DNA from: a virus | Strand: one strand, 5' to 3' | Virus record (IMG/VR): IMGVR_UViG_3300009653_000468 | Coordinates: 1-24,725 of that record | DNA: 24,725 bases | Part shown: piece after piece, positions 10,462 through 21,463 of the stretch | Position numbering within the stretch: position 1 is the stretch's first letter | How the letters are laid out: every line of letters starts with the position of its first letter | Position numbers and translations under genes: made by a program | The notes under the pieces: generated by a model | The model's input: the letters and a program-made list of their open reading frames with translations, nothing else | Told to the model about the DNA's origin: nothing | Database searches by the model: none

Positions 10462-13400
10462 ATGGATGAAATAAGCGTAGTAGTACGGCTTGTAGATGAA
10501 GCTTCTTCACAAATGCAATCACTTGTCGCCAATATGGAAGGTGCAATGAGTTCCATTAGTTCCACGGCGACTGATGCATCTTCCAGTCTCACAGAAATCG
10601 GATCTTCTGCTTCTGATGCTGCTAACAGTATATCAGAGGTTGGTAATGCTGCTAATGAGACAAGTGATGCCGTATCCACAGCAGCAAACAGTGCTGAAGA
10701 ATTGGATAGTGCAACATCGAATATTACATCAACAAATATTGATGAAGTTGCAAATGCTGCCACAGAGGCATCAACATCCCTAAACTCCACTTCTACAAGT
10801 GCCGAGGAACTTGCAACAAGCTTAGCAAGTGTAAATGCTACCGATCTCTCCAGTGTTGCCGCAAGTGCTGATTCTTTGAAAGGAAGTCTGGATAAGACTG
10901 CTGAATCGGCACAAGAACTAACCAACAATTCAAAGGAGGCCACAACCACCCTTGCAAACACGGGTGGAAGCGTTGTGGGGCTTGCTGCCATTGCCGGGGC
11001 CCTTGGAGCTGTCACGGCGGGTATGGAGATGGCAGCACGGGACGCCACAAACCTAAATACAACCTTCCAAAAAATGGCAAGTGCAAAAATGCCAGAACCA
11101 GCCGTAAGGAGCTTTGTAGCAAGCCTTGTTAGTGCAAAACTGCCCTTAGAGGATGTTATAGGTTATATGAAGCTTTTAAAACAAGCTGGAGTCTCAAGTG
11201 CTGAAGGACTCAGGGCAGGTATAATTGGGCTAAACAACTTGGCGCTTGCAACTGGCACCACAAGGGATGAAATTTCCAGATTTGCCAATTCTCTGATTGT
11301 GATGGGTATACGGCTTGATGAAGTTCATAAAGCTTATAATGCTGTCGCTTATGCACAAGCAAACATCGTAGGTGGTTTTGCAACATATATTAAGTGGATG
11401 GAGAAATTTGATTCAGAGTTTAGAAAATTGGGGCTTAACATTGATCAGACAGCTGTGCTTATTGCTGCTGCAACTAAGAAGTTTGGTGGTGGTAGGGCTG
11501 CATACACCGGTTTAAGTCAAGCCTTGAAGGAATGTAACGGTGATCTAAGCGTTTTAGAGCAAAAGCTTGGCATGCAACCTGGTACGCTTGCAAGGGCAAG
11601 TGAAATGACTTCGAAATATGCTGGAACTATTGATAGGAAGTCAAAAATTGAAAAGAACAATGTTACAATAATGCAAATGCTCCAAACAGAACTGGACAAG
11701 CTTAAAATACGTTTCTCATGGCTTATAGGCCCTATTACAAATGTCGGAGGTCTCATAAGTGGTTTAGTAGGATTATATTCAGTATATCTTACATACCAAT
11801 CAGCTGTTTCGATGGCTGCAAGTGCACAAGCATTATCAGAAATGACAAAAGCGGGTGCTACGGAGGCCTCTACCGCAGCAACCAGTCAAAACATCGTTGT
11901 TACTACTTTGCAAGCGGCTGCGAACCGTGTAGTTGCTATAGGGACGGCATTGTACACGGCTGCATTAGAAGGAAATCTAATAGCCTTGATTGCACAGACA
12001 GTAGCTACAAAGGCTGCTACGGCGGCACAATGGTTATTTAATGCTGCTATGTCAGCTAATCCAATTATGTGGGTTGTTATAGCTATAGGGGCCCTTGTAG
12101 CAGCCCTAATTTACCTATACTACAATTACAAGCCCGTAACGGATGCTGTGAACTGGTTCATCAATGGGTTGAAGCAGGTTGGTGGGGTTATCTATGGGTA
12201 CTTGCTTGGGGCCTTTGAAGCGGTGAAAGGGGCCCTATCAGCCGTTGGTTCTGCCATTAGTGGGGCCTTAGGTGGTGTTATCAGTTGGATCATCAATGGA
12301 CTCATGGAAATAGGGAAAGCAGTATACTACGTTGTTTTCTCATTCCAATTTGTGGATGATATGACATCCAAATTTGGAGTTGTAGGACTTGCCATATCAT
12401 ACATCATTAACCCTATAAGGACTTTAATAGAGTTTATTAACCAGTTAAAGATCGCATGGGATGCTTGGAGTAAAACGGCTGAAGGACAAGAAGTATTTAA
12501 GGAATTAGGGGAGGCATTTGGAGAATTGAAGGCGGCGTTTGGAGAAGTCTGGAATGCATTACAACCAGCAATACAAGCAATACAAGCCGCTTTCAGAGAA
12601 CTTTGGGTTGCATTGTTCCCCGTGTCATCAGAAGCCAAGAAAGCCGGTGATGGACTAAAGGATACTGGTAGTGCTGCTAATGATGCGAAAACACCAATAC
12701 AGTTATTTGTTGATATTATAAAAATCTTTGCTGACTTTTTACAGTATGTGGTTGTCCCCGTAATAAAATTACTCGCAGAAGGTATTAGGCTGTTAGCACC
12801 GGGGATAGGGCTTCTTGCAAGCATATTAGCCACCTTAATCGGCTGGGTGATCCAAGGAGCAATATGGTTCATTAATCTTGCCAGAGCAGTCTGGGCTGTT
12901 GCTTCTGCATTTGGACAGTTTGTATGGTCAGTTCTCACAACCATTTGGCAGATTATCATGGGTTTCATACAATTACCTGGTCAAATTATTAGTATTTTGT
13001 GGGGTATCCTCACGGGGACGATGTCTTGGTCAGAAGCTTGGAAGATATTGGGTTCTAATGCTGCTGTGAAGTTTGTTATCTCTATTATCAATTTCTTGAT
13101 CTCCTTACCTGGAAGGGTGTTTAACATCTTAAAATTGGTTTTAAGCCGTGTTGTGGCGTGGATAAGCCAGCTTTGGGCTAAAGGAGTATCAGCTGGTAGG
13201 GGTTTTGTGGATAAAGTTGTAAGTTTTCTTAAAGACCTTCCATCCAAGGTAGGTCAAATCCTCATGGATGCAATAAATGTGATACTTGGGAAGGTAGGAG
13301 ACGCCTTTAATGCGGCAGTACGCTTTGCACAAGGGATATGGGACGGTATAAAAAGTGCATTGCACATAAAAAGCCCCAGCATCATCTACAAACAGCTAAA

Positions 13401-14937
13401 ATCTGATGTGGATGCCGTGAATGACATGTTTAAAAAGAGGGCTGCTGAAGGCCGTGCTGCCGCAGCACTCTACGCTTACGGCTTAAGGGAAGGATTGGAA
13501 CCAGCATTATCAGCAACAACCACAATAGCCACCACAATACCGGCTGGGACAACACCAACAACCACACAAGCCCCAGCAACACAAGAAACAAGGACTCAGA
13601 TGAATGAAGTCACAAAAACCGGCTTAGAGGCTGTGAATACAACAACACAGCAAGGAATGGCTGCCATCAATAACACAACAAATACGGGCTTACAAACGAT
13701 TATATCTACTTGGACAGGTATAAAAGAGACCACAACAAAAACACAAGCAGCTATGACCAATACACAGACAATCACAAAATCAGCAATGTCCACAATGGTA
13801 AACACAACCAAAAATGCGATGGATTCGATGAAGAACGGTTTTAATTCGATGAAAAATGAAGTGATATCAGCAGCCTCAAAAGCGAAAAGTGGGGTTGTTT
13901 CACACATCGACACCCTATCAGCAAATATTAAACAGTTCTATAGGCTTGTGACAAACCCCGGTGCTGGGGGGCCCGCTGGGGGGCCCGTTGGCAGTTCTAT
14001 ACGTAAAATAGCTGGTGCTGGGGCCCCGGTTTCAAGGAAGATCATGACCACCCCATCACTAAAGCTTGGTTTTGGGGCCCTTCCAGAGCCTTTAACACCT
14101 TCTGAACCGTTGAAATCACCAAGCATCCATGATATTAGCAGTTCAAGGAAAGCACAGAAAATAGCAGAAGAATTTTACAGAATGCTGTCATGTCCATCTT
14201 GCTTTGCATATGGGGCTGGCGGGGGATGGGATTACAGTGATGAATGGATTAGCTGGATTAAAAAGCAAATTGGCAGTTATAGAGTTAGTATTTTGCCTGG
14301 TTTAAACATAAAAGCTGGTGATTTTGTCACATACCCGCCTAAGGGGATTGCTGGGAACCTTGCAAGCTTTATAGCTGTTATGTCAGCAATTATAGGAAGG
14401 ACACGGTATGCTTTCTATTATGGAAGTAGTGGATTGTCTGTAGCACAATTATTAGCACGTGGATACTTCAATTGTTACGATGGGGCAAGGATAGTTGTTG
14501 CTTATGCAAATGCGTTTGGATTACCCGCTTATATGAGTTGTGGACTTTCATGGGCTGGTATTCCTCATTGTGCTGCAAATGTGGCGGGGATGTGGTTTGA
14601 CACAACCGCCTTCCAGCAAGGACATGGCTGGACTTCTCCAAAGGTGTCTGGTTATGGTGGGCCTTCTGGTTTAACCCTTGATTCTATTGTTTCTGAGGCT
14701 GTTAAGGGTGCTGTGTCCTTGAAAGGTGGGGAATCTAATGTGAATGTGAATATTGATATTAACTTGGAAAATGTTCCAGAGCACATAAGTGAAAGGGAGC
14801 TTACTGCTATGTTGAAACAGGCTTTACAGGATGATACAATCATTGATACAATTGCTAAGAATCCCCGTTTAACTGAAAATGTGAATAGGAGTCTTGGATT
14901 TGAACTTTTAAGACATAAAAGGAGTGCTGGAGTATGA
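10462..14937 (+). CDS. Tail tape measure protein with a C-terminal transglutaminase-like (PeiW/PeiP-like) peptidase domain
   Basis: 1491 aa, Ala/Ser/Thr-rich helical repeats, AQWLFNAAMSANPI and LHIKSPS TMP motifs, hydrophobic stretches; C-terminal RYAFYY...FNCYD...IPHC...WFD. Confidence 0.92.
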   Translation: MDEISVVVRLVDEASSQMQSLVANMEGAMSSISSTATDASSSLTEIGSSASDAANSISEVGNAANETSDAVSTAANSAEELDSATSNITSTNIDEVANAATEASTSLNSTSTSAEELATSLASVNATDLSSVAASADSLKGSLDKTAESAQELTNNSKEATTTLANTGGSVVGLAAIAGALGAVTAGMEMAARDATNLNTTFQKMASAKMPEPAVRSFVASLVSAKLPLEDVIGYMKLLKQAGVSSAEGLRAGIIGLNNLALATGTTRDEISRFANSLIVMGIRLDEVHKAYNAVAYAQANIVGGFATYIKWMEKFDSEFRKLGLNIDQTAVLIAAATKKFGGGRAAYTGLSQALKECNGDLSVLEQKLGMQPGTLARASEMTSKYAGTIDRKSKIEKNNVTIMQMLQTELDKLKIRFSWLIGPITNVGGLISGLVGLYSVYLTYQSAVSMAASAQALSEMTKAGATEASTAATSQNIVVTTLQAAANRVVAIGTALYTAALEGNLIALIAQTVATKAATAAQWLFNAAMSANPIMWVVIAIGALVAALIYLYYNYKPVTDAVNWFINGLKQVGGVIYGYLLGAFEAVKGALSAVGSAISGALGGVISWIINGLMEIGKAVYYVVFSFQFVDDMTSKFGVVGLAISYIINPIRTLIEFINQLKIAWDAWSKTAEGQEVFKELGEAFGELKAAFGEVWNALQPAIQAIQAAFRELWVALFPVSSEAKKAGDGLKDTGSAANDAKTPIQLFVDIIKIFADFLQYVVVPVIKLLAEGIRLLAPGIGLLASILATLIGWVIQGAIWFINLARAVWAVASAFGQFVWSVLTTIWQIIMGFIQLPGQIISILWGILTGTMSWSEAWKILGSNAAVKFVISIINFLISLPGRVFNILKLVLSRVVAWISQLWAKGVSAGRGFVDKVVSFLKDLPSKVGQILMDAINVILGKVGDAFNAAVRFAQGIWDGIKSALHIKSPSIIYKQLKSDVDAVNDMFKKRAAEGRAAAALYAYGLREGLEPALSATTTIATTIPAGTTPTTTQAPATQETRTQMNEVTKTGLEAVNTTTQQGMAAINNTTNTGLQTIISTWTGIKETTTKTQAAMTNTQTITKSAMSTMVNTTKNAMDSMKNGFNSMKNEVISAASKAKSGVVSHIDTLSANIKQFYRLVTNPGAGGPAGGPVGSSIRKIAGAGAPVSRKIMTTPSLKLGFGALPEPLTPSEPLKSPSIHDISSSRKAQKIAEEFYRMLSCPSCFAYGAGGGWDYSDEWISWIKKQIGSYRVSILPGLNIKAGDFVTYPPKGIAGNLASFIAVMSAIIGRTRYAFYYGSSGLSVAQLLARGYFNCYDGARIVVAYANAFGLPAYMSCGLSWAGIPHCAANVAGMWFDTTAFQQGHGWTSPKVSGYGGPSGLTLDSIVSEAVKGAVSLKGGESNVNVNIDINLENVPEHISERELTAMLKQALQDDTIIDTIAKNPRLTENVNRSLGFELLRHKRSAGV

Positions 14938-15159: not shown

Positions 15160-17892
15160 ATGGCTACTGTGACAAAATATCCACAAAATATTCAATATGA
15201 ACAAGTTGAAAAAACAAGAGGATATTATACTGAAACCATTTGGAACTCATTAGACAGGCTAAAAAAGGATGATAACAACTATGCCTATACTAACACAGTA
15301 GCTTCACGTGCAGGCACTAAATCCAAGCCCGGTAGAATAAAAGCAACCACATTCAACTTTGATATACCTATTAATTCGAAAATAAACAGTGTAAAAGTGG
15401 AATGGAAGGAATATGCAAGGGCATCGAATGGATCAATATATGGGACAATAGCAATACCATCAGTATCCATTTACCTAATAAAGGCTAATGGTGGGTCTAA
15501 TAGCAGCACAAAGACTGATAATTATCGTGTTCCTACTTCCCCAACTTCAAGAAGCTTAACATGGACATCATCTGATATTCCGAATGTGAAAAGGGATAAT
15601 CTTGCAGATTCGGGCTTCGGAGTTTATTTCAACCCAGCAAGAAATACGAATTATAATGCGGGTATAATGTATTTGGACTACATTCGGGTGGTTGTTGATT
15701 ATACAACACCCACATATTCATTATATTCAAACAAAACAGGTACATTAGAGATATTTAAGGATATTACTGTCACAGCAACCTTAACAAACTCAAACAACAC
15801 CCCACACACCACACCAGTACCAGTAAATGTCTCCATACCCTCAGATGCAACAGTGAAAAGTGTAACATGCGATGGAACATATAACTTTGAGGAAAAAGTC
15901 TGGAATGCGAAAATAGGAAGCGGAGGCACAGCAACCATAACCATGGTCTTAACATTTAATCAACCTGGTTCTAAGACTGTTTCATTCACAGAAACTGTTA
16001 CTAATCAAAGCACAAGCCAAAATTTTAATGTAACAGACACTTATCTGAAATTTACACATGTTGATTACTCTGTGATAGGAACAAGTAACACAACGATAAC
16101 TTACACAGCAACAAAGGCTACAAGTGGAACTGCAACCGCAACAATCCCCTTACCATCATGGATTACTTATGTAAGCTACTCTGGTGATGGTACATACAAT
16201 CCAAGCACTGGAGAATGGTCTGTTTCATTCGCAAGCGGCGGAGAAACAAAAACTCTGAACCTAACAATAAGAGCAAATGCTACAAATAAAATTTACAAGC
16301 AAGTGGTGACTTCAAATAGTGAAACAGCAACTATAAGATACCTAATCAATGGAACACCATCTAACACAACTTGTCTTGGATATAGGATAAACCTAAATGC
16401 AGCAGGGATAACATTAACACAAAATAAAACATATCACTTGACTTTCTATATGTATGCAGAGAAAAAGGGGATACCATACAAACAAACAGGAGTATCAACA
16501 GAATATAAAGTGTTTATTGATTCAACAGAGATAGGAGACATACCACTGGATATTTATGAGGGTTGGCAGAAGGTTGATATTGAATTCACAGCCCCATCAT
16601 CCTCTCCCAACTACTTGTATATTAATGGGCCTTCAAGATACAGTGAAACTGAAAAATTCAAGCTTATGCTTGCTGGATTATGCATTGCGAAGGATTCTGA
16701 ATTCTATGAACCAAAAACCTTAATCTCCAATCCAGAAAGGATCGGAGTACAGGGGCAATATGCTACAATTTCATTATCAGCGTATGAGGAAACAAACATT
16801 TATAAGGTGAAATTTCAAGGAACAACACCCTCTGATGGTTATGTTGTTGGAATGGAGATACCAACAGAGTATGAAACAGATAATAACCTGTCTGGGGATC
16901 TTATATTACATTTTAGTGATTATGATATTGAGAAGACCAGCATATTCCCACCAGAGGCCACAAAAGTTGCATGGGGTTCGAAATGGGATAAGTGGGGTCT
17001 TGAGGAATTAGATGATTCTACTTCACCATTATTTTTACCATTATCAGAGAATCCTTATATGCTCTTTAAATTGAAGAATATTAGTTCAGAGACTGCTAAT
17101 GTGAAATTGAAGAATATTACATTTGATTTGTATTATGTTGATGATTCTCTGCTGAGTAGGCCGGGGTTTAAGTTGGATAATGTTCATAGCAAATCTTATC
17201 TTATTCATCTGTCCCCAGATACTGAATTCACAGCAGGAATAGACCCTGATATACAAATAACAGATTACAAACAAGCAGATGAAAATATACTCTATGGATA
17301 TTCAGTTAACCCTAAAAAATTATCATTGAAGTTTTATATTGGTGATGATGATTTTGAAGGGGCGACAGATCTTTTAGAGGAAGTTACAAAATTCTTTTCA
17401 AACAAAAAAGACAAATTTGGCTTACCAATACCAAAGAAGCTTAGATTTGACTGGGATGATGATACATACTATAATGTAATCTTGTCATCAGCAATAAAGA
17501 GCAAAGCACAACCAGCAGCCTATGAATGTCAAGCAGAATTTGTGATACCTGATGGTGTGGGTTGGCATAACCCTAAATATTACCCTCAAAAGGGGAAACA
17601 CAGAAGCATATTACCTGCCAAGCCCCTAATTTGTCTTAGAACTGTTGGGAAAGAAATTGTGACAATAACTGAATCAAAAACAGGGCAAAAGATGATAATA
17701 AACTCCAAATTCCCAAATGGAACAATATTATATGTTGATTGTAAGCTGAGGAAGGTCTATGATAGTAACAACACAGAATACACTGGTTCAGTAGCCCTAA
17801 ACAGCGACTGGTTCAGACTAAACCCAGAATTCGACTTTAGCGACTCTAATGGGTGTGAAATACTATTTGTCAAGGTGGTTGAAGCAGTATGA
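15160..17892 (+). CDS. Distal tail (Dit-like) protein with a long N-terminal adhesin-like extension
   Basis: C-terminal ~245 aa has Dit-like features (KKLSLKFYI, KKLRFDWDDDTYY, EFVIPD, SDWFRL); N-terminal ~660 aa is beta-rich with two DUF11-like GTYN..W repeats and jelly-roll segments. Confidence 0.75.
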   Translation: MATVTKYPQNIQYEQVEKTRGYYTETIWNSLDRLKKDDNNYAYTNTVASRAGTKSKPGRIKATTFNFDIPINSKINSVKVEWKEYARASNGSIYGTIAIPSVSIYLIKANGGSNSSTKTDNYRVPTSPTSRSLTWTSSDIPNVKRDNLADSGFGVYFNPARNTNYNAGIMYLDYIRVVVDYTTPTYSLYSNKTGTLEIFKDITVTATLTNSNNTPHTTPVPVNVSIPSDATVKSVTCDGTYNFEEKVWNAKIGSGGTATITMVLTFNQPGSKTVSFTETVTNQSTSQNFNVTDTYLKFTHVDYSVIGTSNTTITYTATKATSGTATATIPLPSWITYVSYSGDGTYNPSTGEWSVSFASGGETKTLNLTIRANATNKIYKQVVTSNSETATIRYLINGTPSNTTCLGYRINLNAAGITLTQNKTYHLTFYMYAEKKGIPYKQTGVSTEYKVFIDSTEIGDIPLDIYEGWQKVDIEFTAPSSSPNYLYINGPSRYSETEKFKLMLAGLCIAKDSEFYEPKTLISNPERIGVQGQYATISLSAYEETNIYKVKFQGTTPSDGYVVGMEIPTEYETDNNLSGDLILHFSDYDIEKTSIFPPEATKVAWGSKWDKWGLEELDDSTSPLFLPLSENPYMLFKLKNISSETANVKLKNITFDLYYVDDSLLSRPGFKLDNVHSKSYLIHLSPDTEFTAGIDPDIQITDYKQADENILYGYSVNPKKLSLKFYIGDDDFEGATDLLEEVTKFFSNKKDKFGLPIPKKLRFDWDDDTYYNVILSSAIKSKAQPAAYECQAEFVIPDGVGWHNPKYYPQKGKHRSILPAKPLICLRTVGKEIVTITESKTGQKMIINSKFPNGTILYVDCKLRKVYDSNNTEYTGSVALNSDWFRLNPEFDFSDSNGCEILFVKVVEAV

Positions 17893-20285
17893 AAACCAGA
17901 AACATTGCAGTTCTAACACCTGATGAAAAGCTCATAGGATACCTCAATGATGAATATCTTACAATTACAGAAACTTGCGAGATCGGAAAACTCAGACAAA
18001 TCAAAATAGAGCATCCAATATGGGACAATGATACAAAAGAATCATTAGACTACTACCTTAGCCTGTTAGAGCATGGAAACAAGATATGGTGGCAAAAAAC
18101 CCCAAATGGGGACAGTTGCCTATATGTTATTGTTGGAGAAAGGCTTATAGACCCAGTACTCAATAAAGTGACTGTTATAGCTGAAGAAGCAGCCATAGAA
18201 TTATCTTTCCTTGAACCAATACAATACGAAAATGTTGTCATTGACAGCTTCCCCGGTACAACCTTAAATTCAAGATATGTGAGATTAAACAGTGTTGGGA
18301 GTGTTTCAATAGAAAATGACAAACTAAAATTGTCTGTTTCAACTGGGACTGATGCAAGATGGGACATAGGCGCTTTCAAAGCATGTCATGTTGGAATACC
18401 CATATCAAACACCCCAAATTTCACTATCAGTGTAAAAATAGAATCTGATACGCAAGCAAACAACACATGGAAAGGAATAGGCCTAACCGATGGGACTGCT
18501 GGGAAATGGTGTAGGGTGGTAAGGAAAGTTGATTCATCAGAGACTAAAATAAAATTAGAAACCCCAAGAAATGACATAGCAGTAGATGTCAGCACACAAC
18601 CAGTCTATTTCGAGCTTAAATTGTCTGCTTGGCAGGTAACAGCAGACTATAAAACAGAGGATGGGGATTGGCAGAATATCGGTAGTGTATATATTGATTT
18701 TGATCCCACACATGTAATATTATTCGTATCAAACCAATACGGCAACTATAATGGTGTAGTTGGAAGATTCGATGATCTGCTTTTCATACCAGAATTGGGA
18801 ATCCCCATAACAGTAGATTCAAGCTGGATAAGCAGTGTAACTGGTGGTTTGTTCCAAGCAGGGACAGTGGAAAGCACAACAATGTATTACGGTGGTGTAG
18901 CAACCCCAATGGCACTATTGAGGGAATTAGAGAATCAAACAGGGAAAACAGTCAAATTTAGATATGAATATTCAGTTGAAGAAGGTATAAAGAGATATAT
19001 TGATATAGTATCAAATCCGGGGGTTGAGCACAGAAAACCAATAGAAATCGGCTATGATACTGAAAACATCACCTTAGAAGAATCTGAAGCAGATAGTAGC
19101 ATTGCAATAGCCCCAATTCATCGAACAAGCAGCCAAGAAGACATACAAAAGTATCATGAGATATATAATCAATGGGAACTTCTATCAGTGAATCCAGGGG
19201 ACATGATCCCCGGAATGGTTATCATAGACCAAGATAATAATGTGATAGAGGGCCCTAAACTTCCAGCACCATTCAAAAAGGATGCTGGGAGCAAATATAT
19301 CTATGATACGACAGGTGCAAGTGGAATAGAATATCAGAACATATTCAATCCATCAACTGGAAATAACATTATGAAGGTGTATCCTTTTGATGTGAATGAA
19401 TCCCACCCCTATAATATCTATTGGAAGCTTGTTGAGAAGTTATATGAGATTCGACAACCAACCGTCAAATTCACAACAAATGTCCATAACATTTCATTGC
19501 TTTCAGATACACTTGATGATACCTATTATAATGTACATGATACTGTTTATCTACATATCAACTGGAGAGAGGATAAAATCCCTGCAACAGTGATAAAAAC
19601 AGAGAAATCAAGCATAGACCCATCAAAAGACCGCATAGAGCTTGGAAACTACCAGATAAACTTCCTATCAGACTACTTGTCAACATTCTACCCACGATCT
19701 AAAAGAACCCCTATGGAAATCACATATCCAACAAAACCGACACTGGAATATGATTATTATAGTACAGCGATTAAAACCCCGGGTAAAGTGTTAAATATGG
19801 ATACTGGGGGGACTTGGCAGCCTTGGGTTAGTGGGACAACACTTGCACAAGCTGTTGCCTCCAAGGATGATGGAAACAGTGCTTATGTGAGTATGGGGCA
19901 AGGAGACACAAAAACACTTGTCGCTAACACATTTGGATTCAATATCCCATCCAATGCCGAAATAACAAACATAGCTGTCACACACCGCTATAAGCATGGT
20001 TCAATAACAATAGATGCTTATGTCACACTCTTAGCACTTGTCCCAGGGGTAACTTATAACATTTATTATAATGATCCAAAGAAACTTTATTCTACATATA
20101 CAGAGAGGACAGAGGAAGGAGATATACTTACATTTTGGAAATCAACAGATGGGATCGGCCCTGCAACAGTAAACAGCAGTGGATTTGGTGTGTTTTTGAG
20201 GATGCGTAATAATTCCACAACAACAGGGAATCTATTTTGTGATTATATTGGTGTGAAGGTGTATTATCGTATTCCAAGGGTCTAA
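17889..20285 (+). CDS. Baseplate hub / Tal-like minor tail protein with inserted and terminal beta-sandwich domains
   Basis: Tal-like N-terminus (IAVL..DEKLIGYL, CLYVI, VTVIAEEAAIEL) and end (YNVHDTVYL...ATVI...IELGNY); follows Dit with ATGA overlap. Confidence 0.75.
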   Translation: MKTRNIAVLTPDEKLIGYLNDEYLTITETCEIGKLRQIKIEHPIWDNDTKESLDYYLSLLEHGNKIWWQKTPNGDSCLYVIVGERLIDPVLNKVTVIAEEAAIELSFLEPIQYENVVIDSFPGTTLNSRYVRLNSVGSVSIENDKLKLSVSTGTDARWDIGAFKACHVGIPISNTPNFTISVKIESDTQANNTWKGIGLTDGTAGKWCRVVRKVDSSETKIKLETPRNDIAVDVSTQPVYFELKLSAWQVTADYKTEDGDWQNIGSVYIDFDPTHVILFVSNQYGNYNGVVGRFDDLLFIPELGIPITVDSSWISSVTGGLFQAGTVESTTMYYGGVATPMALLRELENQTGKTVKFRYEYSVEEGIKRYIDIVSNPGVEHRKPIEIGYDTENITLEESEADSSIAIAPIHRTSSQEDIQKYHEIYNQWELLSVNPGDMIPGMVIIDQDNNVIEGPKLPAPFKKDAGSKYIYDTTGASGIEYQNIFNPSTGNNIMKVYPFDVNESHPYNIYWKLVEKLYEIRQPTVKFTTNVHNISLLSDTLDDTYYNVHDTVYLHINWREDKIPATVIKTEKSSIDPSKDRIELGNYQINFLSDYLSTFYPRSKRTPMEITYPTKPTLEYDYYSTAIKTPGKVLNMDTGGTWQPWVSGTTLAQAVASKDDGNSAYVSMGQGDTKTLVANTFGFNIPSNAEITNIAVTHRYKHGSITIDAYVTLLALVPGVTYNIYYNDPKKLYSTYTERTEEGDILTFWKSTDGIGPATVNSSGFGVFLRMRNNSTTTGNLFCDYIGVKVYYRIPRV

Positions 20286-20692: not shown

Positions 20693-21463
20693 TTGGCTGA
20701 CCCAAAATACGTAACATTGGAAGATTTCAAAGATATGATACGTAGATATGAAGCATTCAAAAAAGAGAAGGGTAGAGACCCAAATTTTGTACGGGTTAAG
20801 GGGTCTGAGTATGCGATCCCCAACCCAGTCTTCAAGGACATGATTGAAAGATATAATCAGTTCTTGAAGGAAAACGGGAGAGAACCAAAGGTGATATACT
20901 TGAACAAGGAAGAACGACCCAAGAATGAGAAAAAGGAAGCAGATGGATGGGTATTAACCGGATACTTCAAGCAAGATTTTCAAGACACGGGGTACACTTG
21001 CGGCCCCAGCAGCCTCCAAATGGCCCTTTCAGCCCTTGGATGCAATATCTCAGAAAAAGAACTTGCCAAAGCCGGATACACAAACATCCACGGCACTACT
21101 CATGATGGAATGATAAGTGCGGTGAAGTATGCAAGCAAAAAATGCAAAAAGAACATACAAGCACAGTTCAAACCATTCTACAGTCTTGGATGGGATAGTA
21201 TCGTCAAACACATCCAAAATGGCGGTGAAATCGTAATACACTTGATCACAAGGCCTGGTTTGGATGTGGATGTGAACGGTGTTGTGGTCTGGAGACAAGC
21301 ATGGGGACACTATGTCTACCTTGTGGGTGTGAATCAGAAGAAGGGCCTTGTAAGGATAGCCGATCCTACAAAGGGGATTCATGATTTTAGAAGTGGACAA
21401 GTTGTCCAAGCGATGAATAACGTGTCAGCACCGAGCATTTTAATGTTAAACGTCAAAAAATGA
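20693..21463 (+). CDS. Pseudomurein endolysin: two pseudomurein-binding repeats plus a C39-like cysteine peptidase
   Basis: Repeats FKDMIRRYEAFKKEKGRDPNFV and FKDMIERYNQFLKENGREPKVI resemble PeiP/PeiW PMBRs; C39 motifs Q97-x5-C103 (QDTGYTCGPSSL), H206 (GHY), D224 (IADP). Confidence 0.88.
   Translation: MADPKYVTLEDFKDMIRRYEAFKKEKGRDPNFVRVKGSEYAIPNPVFKDMIERYNQFLKENGREPKVIYLNKEERPKNEKKEADGWVLTGYFKQDFQDTGYTCGPSSLQMALSALGCNISEKELAKAGYTNIHGTTHDGMISAVKYASKKCKKNIQAQFKPFYSLGWDSIVKHIQNGGEIVIHLITRPGLDVDVNGVVVWRQAWGHYVYLVGVNQKKGLVRIADPTKGIHDFRSGQVVQAMNNVSAPSILMLNVKK
20708..20902 (+). repeat. Two tandem pseudomurein-binding repeats (aa 6-35 and 41-70 of the endolysin)
   Basis: Internal duplication FKDMI-RY--F-KE-GR-P--(V/I) visible directly in the translation. 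Confidence 0.85.

Follow-up and report, generated by a model that had tools for sequence, protein, structure and literature searches.

The window analysed here is the whole 24,725-nucleotide stretch of IMG/VR record IMGVR_UViG_3300009653_000468 (positions 1 to 24,725), a 24.7-kb provirus record with a siphovirus-like late operon. Open reading frame (ORF) 10462-14937, on the + strand, encodes a protein of 1491 residues according to the ORF list, its translation and profile matches. We assign it as the tail tape measure protein (TMP) because residues 229-414 match PF10145 (34.1 bits for a cut-off of 33.2), because this ORF matches over a dozen PHROG families of tape measure proteins and because it stands before Dit-like and Tal-like genes. 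Profile, size and gene order are those of tail tape measure proteins. The C-terminal part of the TMP of this Methanobacteriales provirus is best explained as carrying a transglutaminase-like cysteine peptidase, predicted to be catalytically competent, with Cys1338, His1369 and Asp1380 as its triad.

The core of this domain spans residues 1290-1404 (14329-14673, + strand). A preliminary description of the sequence had pointed to a globular segment after a Gly/Pro linker near the TMP C-terminus. Such a segment is indeed found at residues ~1290-1404, and the four stretches quoted from it (RYAFYYGS, FNCYDGA, PHCAANV and MWFDTT) are all present in the translation. The triad codons on the + strand also read as proposed. 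Cys1338, the predicted nucleophile, is encoded by tgt (14473-14475) within an invariant N-C-x-D motif. His1369, the predicted general base, is encoded by cat (14566-14568). Asp1380, the third triad residue, is encoded by gac (14599-14601) and opens a D-T-T-A-x-Q signature characteristic of the family.

A word-indexed search returned 27 TMP-sized relatives. When 1.84 billion representatives were searched exhaustively with HMMER, 223 matched at E<=0.001, 91 of them at E<=1e-10. The family is therefore counted as 223 clusters at 50% identity, and no two of the aligned representatives share more than 50% identity. Within this alignment the Cys and the preceding Asn are found in 150 representatives out of 150, and the His and the Asp in 151 out of 151. 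The two tyrosines of Y-x-x-Y-Y as well as the Thr and Gln of D-T-T-A-x-Q are also invariant, and an Asp nearly always follows two residues after the Cys. This conservation of the triad is far beyond chance. The preliminary description had proposed a Y.FYY...NC.D...H...WD context. Cys, His, Asp, N-C-x-D and the Y..Y motif are kept, but the Trp two residues before Asp1380 varies in the family. Thus, the real signatures reduce to the three triad residues, the N-C-x-D context and the Y..Y motif.

The position of the domain is also fixed. Of the 150 listed representatives, 145 have the domain ending 0-15 residues from the protein C-terminus. The listed family proteins mostly measure 900-4289 residues; those below this size probably represent fragments. 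Comparison with the diverged TMPs PhiF3, P0007 and P0010 gives 72-79% identity for residues 1297-1400 and 15-59% for the other regions, mostly 15-35%. No other part of the TMP is as well conserved as the catalytic domain, which is under strong purifying selection. One member, a 1215-residue TMP on a contig binned as Saccharibacteria (L015:5085-8729), has two tandem catalytic cores (residues 973-1066 and 1063-1162).

Fold and relation to pseudomurein endoisopeptidases

In the structural model, Cys1338 is located at the N-terminus of a helix (model residues 92-105), His1369 in a strand (121-128) and Asp1380 after a strand (131-133). The model therefore displays the hallmark of transglutaminase-like enzymes: a helix begins with the Cys, and adjacent strands provide the His and the Asp. 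All the top structural matches belong to this group. The nearest solved relatives are enzymes that cut pseudomurein: the catalytic domain of PeiW/PeiP (PDB 8jx4, 8z4f) has the same fold. The transglutaminase/papain-like fold put forward earlier is thus borne out by the secondary structure of the model as well as by these structural matches. Clustering of the three residues is consistent with their placement in the secondary structure and with the superposition on PeiW/PeiP. LapG, a bacterial transglutaminase-like cysteine proteinase (PDB 4fgo), shows 12% identity; it is a periplasmic regulator of adhesin release, neither a wall enzyme nor viral. A sequence search of the PDB with the domain gave chance-level matches only.

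PeiW from psiM100 and PeiP from psiM2 (MEROPS C71) cleave the Ala-epsilon-Lys bond of pseudomurein using a Cys-His-Asp triad (PMC4592898, PMC2989375). Their activity depends on a thiol and on Ca/Mg. They are made of four PMBR repeats followed by the enzyme, whereas here the enzyme is fused to the end of the TMP. Pei acts from inside, at lysis; the TMP domain is presumed to act from outside, at entry.

At the sequence level, profile-profile comparison of 27 TMP domains with 16 C71 domains using hhalign gave a probability of 82.5% (E 1e-5). The match spans Y-x-F-Y-Y, N-C-x-D and the catalytic Cys and His, and ends before the Asp. It places Cys1338 on the Cys of I-N-C-T-D in PeiP and His1369 on the His of G-H-Y in the same protein. 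With BLASTP, solely the stretch from Y-x-F-Y-Y to N-C-x-D was aligned between the last 291 residues and PeiP (E 0.019 in one comparison). The Cys-His-Asp order with the Cys in N-C-x-D, as in C71, is found in the TMP domain. The domain is nevertheless Pei-like in structure only, and not a member of the C71 family. Neither the TMP nor its last 291 residues matches PF12386 (C71; cut-off 22 bits) at E<=1, and the sequence is nearer to host proteins, as described below. Two of 17 relatives touch PF12386, with a best E of 0.017, and a C71 HMM built in this analysis found no TMP at E<=1e-3. PF01841 (Transglut_core, cut-off 23 bits) scores the window domain at 15.0-15.4 bits (E 0.02-0.03), below its cut-off, and matches 11 of the 17 relatives at E<=0.1 (best 7.5e-6).

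Host relatives and distribution

We searched five Methanobacteriaceae/Methanobrevibacter genomes (L017-L041) with the domain profile. Provirus TMPs were found at E 1e-45 to 1e-73, and each genome also gave 5-12 cellular genes with E values of 1e-13 to 1e-4. Of five cellular genes read, one is a core alone and the others combine PMBR, Big_5 or DUF11 with Transglut_core. Four of the five pass the cut-offs of both PF01841 and PF12386, and so bridge the two Pfam families. With an HMM of 151 TMP domains, 25 host cores scored 41-60 bits compared with 19-31 bits for C71 proteins. The host Transglut_core proteins are therefore the closest sequence relatives outside the TMP family, with the same triad and with a link to pseudomurein through PMBR. 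They differ from the TMP domain in being free-standing (150-440 residues and longer) and in scoring 76-99 bits with PF01841, compared with 15 bits for the window domain. A role in pseudomurein cross-linking or recycling has been proposed for them (PMC10117817).

In a tree of 97 columns, the TMP, C71 and host groups each lie on one side of a branch (SH-aLRT 98, 99 and 86, respectively). Mean path lengths are 2.60 between TMP and host, 2.50 between C71 and host and 3.51 between TMP and C71. The tree is short and unrooted, so that neither a donor nor an order of events is drawn from it. Judged from these sequences, the TMP domain is a family of its own within the methanogen transglutaminase-like radiation, and not a derivative of Pei.

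Two different queries against 50,697 phage records retrieved the same seven records, corresponding to five viruses: PhiF3, Drs3, vir075, vir249 and MSTV1. All five are viruses of Methanobacteriales, and every match is at the TMP C-terminus. The survey of other Methanobacteriales viruses suggested in the preliminary description thus finds the domain carried by their TMPs too. The collection presumably includes viruses of haloarchaea and of other methanogens, and it is the part of the survey that bears on archaeal hosts without pseudomurein. A megablast search of these phage records with the whole window gave no match. Among genomes, 25 of 251 from the order of a Methanobacteriaceae metagenome-assembled genome (MAG) match at E<=1e-20, nearly all in reading frames of 944-3495 residues. 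Ten genome loci include contigs binned as Synergistaceae, Clostridia, Bacteroidales, Lachnospiraceae and Saccharibacteria (L006, L007, L009, L013, L015). A 300-genome sample of the class of the 'Clostridia' MAG that contains such a contig was also searched, and none of the 299 other genomes matches at E<=1e-8.

The 'Clostridia' contig carries the same set of DUF11-Dit, Tal and C39 lysin genes as the window. A bacterial origin of some family members was considered, and this window-like gene set and the 299 negative genomes make it improbable. Viral contigs are often mis-binned. Together with the shared tail and lysin genes and the absence of matches in other genomes of the class, this leads us to read the bacteria-labelled contigs as probably mis-binned contigs of methanogen viruses. 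Among the collections searched (the phage records, the genomes of the Methanobacteriales order and the Clostridia-class sample), the domain is found only in viruses and proviruses of hosts with a pseudomurein wall.

Possible role at entry and alternatives

The nearest solved relatives of the domain cut the cell wall of methanogens, and the virus therefore probably brings its own wall-opening tool. We favour, with moderate confidence and by analogy with bacteriophages, a delivery of the domain by the virion and a cleavage of pseudomurein at entry. What we infer here is the substrate, that the reaction is a hydrolysis and not a transfer, that the virion contains the domain, and when the domain acts. 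The hhalign and BLASTP links to Pei, the invariant triad, the high identity of the core compared with the rest of the TMP, the fixed position at the TMP C-terminus and the restriction to Methanobacteriales argue for this reading, as does the occurrence of pseudomurein-binding repeats in the nearest cellular homologues.

In tailed phages, the TMP C-terminus is at the tail tip and leaves first, so that the domain would meet the pseudomurein layer before anything else. In the mechanism that we propose, the variable segment formed by the last ~90 residues would anchor the TMP C-terminus in the tail tip. On adsorption the tip would open and the TMP would be expelled C-terminus first. The domain would then cut peptide or isopeptide cross-links of pseudomurein locally, after which the hydrophobic TMP body would reach the membrane and form a conduit for DNA. 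This body contains hydrophobic, membrane-span-like segments at residues 528-556 and 748-890 (12043-13131, + strand; Kyte-Doolittle peaks of 1.6-2.5 with a 19-residue window). Such segments are typical of TMPs thought to insert in the host membrane, and may serve the same purpose here. As the preliminary description had noted, the TMP lacks binding repeats: neither PMBR nor any other binding repeat was found in it at E<=1. This fits an enzyme positioned by the tail itself, and a thiol enzyme suits an anoxic host.

The same logic is known from bacteriophages. T5 Pb2 and the Tmp of mycobacteriophage TM4 are TMPs with wall-degrading motifs. There too, the first protein to leave the tail incorporates an enzyme, and the TMP bodies are of the same kind (PF10145, hydrophobic segments). 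Unlike the domain described here, the metallopeptidase-type motif of T5 Pb2 and the Rpf-like motif of TM4 Tmp are directed against murein, in bacterial hosts.

Several points weigh against a cleavage of pseudomurein at entry. The domain has no PF12386 match and stays below the PF01841 cut-off. Its sequence is nearer to the host Transglut_core proteins, which have been proposed as cross-linkers rather than cutters (PMC10117817). The TMP of psiM2 lacks the domain, and the sole psiM2 relative of the fold is PeiP; psiM2 infects a pseudomurein host, and the domain is therefore not indispensable. The host restriction could result in part from common descent of the viruses rather than from the substrate. 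Finally, three globular domains would have to fit inside the tail tip.

In a variant of this reading, the TMP family arose independently of Pei, from transglutaminase-like wall enzymes of Methanobacteriales, and cuts (or reverses) another bond, for instance gamma-Glu-epsilon-Lys. We regard this as a tentative possibility. The domain would then define a second class of enzymes that lyse pseudomurein, and would be the first entry enzyme known to be carried by the virion of a tailed archaeal virus.

A different view, which we hold to be unlikely, is that the domain is a maturation protease whose substrate is its own TMP or a second tail protein, at assembly or ejection, and not the wall. Processing is known for the bacteriophage TMPs lambda gpH and T5 Pb2, and papain-like domains often act in cis. 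The domain always adjoins a short C-terminal tail. This tail, exchanged between otherwise near-identical TMPs, could be a removable pro-piece or a docking piece, and the TMP has no wall-binding repeat. On the other hand, the nearest relatives by structure and by sequence (Pei, PMBR-bearing proteins) are associated with the wall, no conserved cleavage motif was identified, and the two tandem cores of L015 are easier to explain by a higher dose of an enzyme acting outward than by one cut in cis.

The same triad serves both hydrolysis and transfer. The domain might be a transamidase that forms an isopeptide bond, locking the TMP or the tail tip to a Lys or Glu of pseudomurein or cross-linking TMP subunits. 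The host cores at 41-60 bits, as proposed pseudomurein cross-linkers, are in line with such an activity (PMC10117817), and so is the inhibition of PeiW and PeiP by the transglutaminase inhibitor dansylcadaverine (PMC4592898). The cutting activity of the nearest solved relatives makes us consider a bond-forming role distinctly unlikely. We think it quite improbable that the enzyme degrades another part of the envelope, namely a host S-layer protein, a surface glycoprotein or an adhesin-like protein. The TMP has no PMBR, many surface proteins of Methanobacteriales have transglutaminase-like and DUF11 domains, and the virus Dit also has DUF11; however, the main barrier to be crossed in these hosts is pseudomurein, all hosts with which the family was found have a pseudomurein wall, and its structural neighbours cut this polymer. 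That the domain is catalytically dead, with a structural or binding role, is hardly credible given that the triad residues and the Asn and Asp beside the Cys are invariant in 150 representatives with at most 50% mutual identity.

Little is known about the way in which archaeal viruses get through the envelope of their hosts. A review of their entry from 2024 raises the question of whether enzymes for this step are present in further archaeal virions, and names none of this kind for viruses of methanogens (PMC10791045). Searches of the openly accessible full-text literature on TMPs together with pseudomurein, transglutaminase or methanogen viruses found no description of this domain, no TMP wall enzyme in archaeal viruses and no report of a transglutaminase-like domain on a TMP. 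The domain provides a concrete, widespread and expressible candidate: it is represented by 223 clusters, and about one tenth of the sampled Methanobacteriales genomes have a TMP that carries it. If the domain does open the wall, the principle of placing a wall enzyme on the tape measure would reach beyond phages, to archaea and to pseudomurein. The very few pseudomurein-lytic enzymes known so far would also gain a new member. Such enzymes serve to lyse methanogens in laboratory work, and their use against rumen methane is being explored.

Variable tail, linker region and neighbouring genes

Downstream of the catalytic core, residues 1405-1491 form a variable helical C-terminal tail (14674-14934, + strand; helices at model residues 198-242), with 15-23% identity to relatives. 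P0003 and the window TMP are 98-100% identical in most regions, 46% in residues 421-1000 and 20% in residues 1405-1491. At least two tail types recur across relatives, irrespective of the similarity of the catalytic domains. These alignments point to the last ~90 residues being swapped as a module between near-identical TMPs. Because this segment is helical and exchanged in this way, it is probably a docking element for variable tail-tip proteins.

Upstream of the core, a Gly/Pro/Ser-rich linker is read from the translation at residues ~1166-1225 (13957-14136, + strand). Taken to residue ~1245, it follows a Thr-rich region and contains 24% Gly and Pro (residues 1170-1245) versus 5-11% in the TMP body up to residue 1165. 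An N-terminal sub-domain of the C-terminal module follows (residues 1243-1289; 14188-14328, + strand), with C-x-x-C and a conserved W-D-x-S in the alignment of 27 TMP C-termini. The fold is uncertain there, with a model pLDDT of just 56-64. A C-P-S-C cysteine pair (residues 1241-1246; 14182-14199) is located shortly upstream of the domain, and more distant relatives have two similarly placed cysteines (C...C-Y). This pair is a possible metal or disulfide site, in a region where the model is uncertain.

Small ORFs directly 5' of the TMP gene are in the position of tail chaperones, and are candidates for such genes. On the other side, ORF 15160-17892 (+ strand) encodes a Dit-like distal tail protein with DUF11 (SPP1_Dit 37 bits, DUF11 32 bits). 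ORF 17889-20285 (+ strand) is a Tal-like tail hub, assigned from its position after Dit and a weak Prophage_tail match (22.6 bits, below the cut-off). DUF11 is common to the virus Dit and to a host transglutaminase-like surface protein (L021:63-1385), and may come from a shared pool of surface modules.

ORF 20693-21463 (+ strand) is a candidate lysin, or exit enzyme, with two PMBR repeats and Peptidase_C39_2 (PF13529 44.5 bits, PF09373 42.3 bits). It is homologous to PhiF3 ORF27, annotated as a putative pseudomurein endoisopeptidase. The preliminary description had paired the TMP domain with this lysin as two unrelated peptidase folds for entry and exit. Two families are indeed paired, but the difference in fold was overstated because C39 also belongs to the papain-like superfamily (PMC10318531). 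In a related virus, the C39_2 homologue (L007:14770-15642) has PG_binding_1 repeats where the window lysin has PMBR, as if wall-binding modules had been exchanged on a common catalytic domain. Downstream of the domain-bearing TMP of another provirus, a 232-residue protein (L010:15362-16057) shows a weak C71-like match (21 bits), and some viruses may thus use transglutaminase-like enzymes at both entry and exit.
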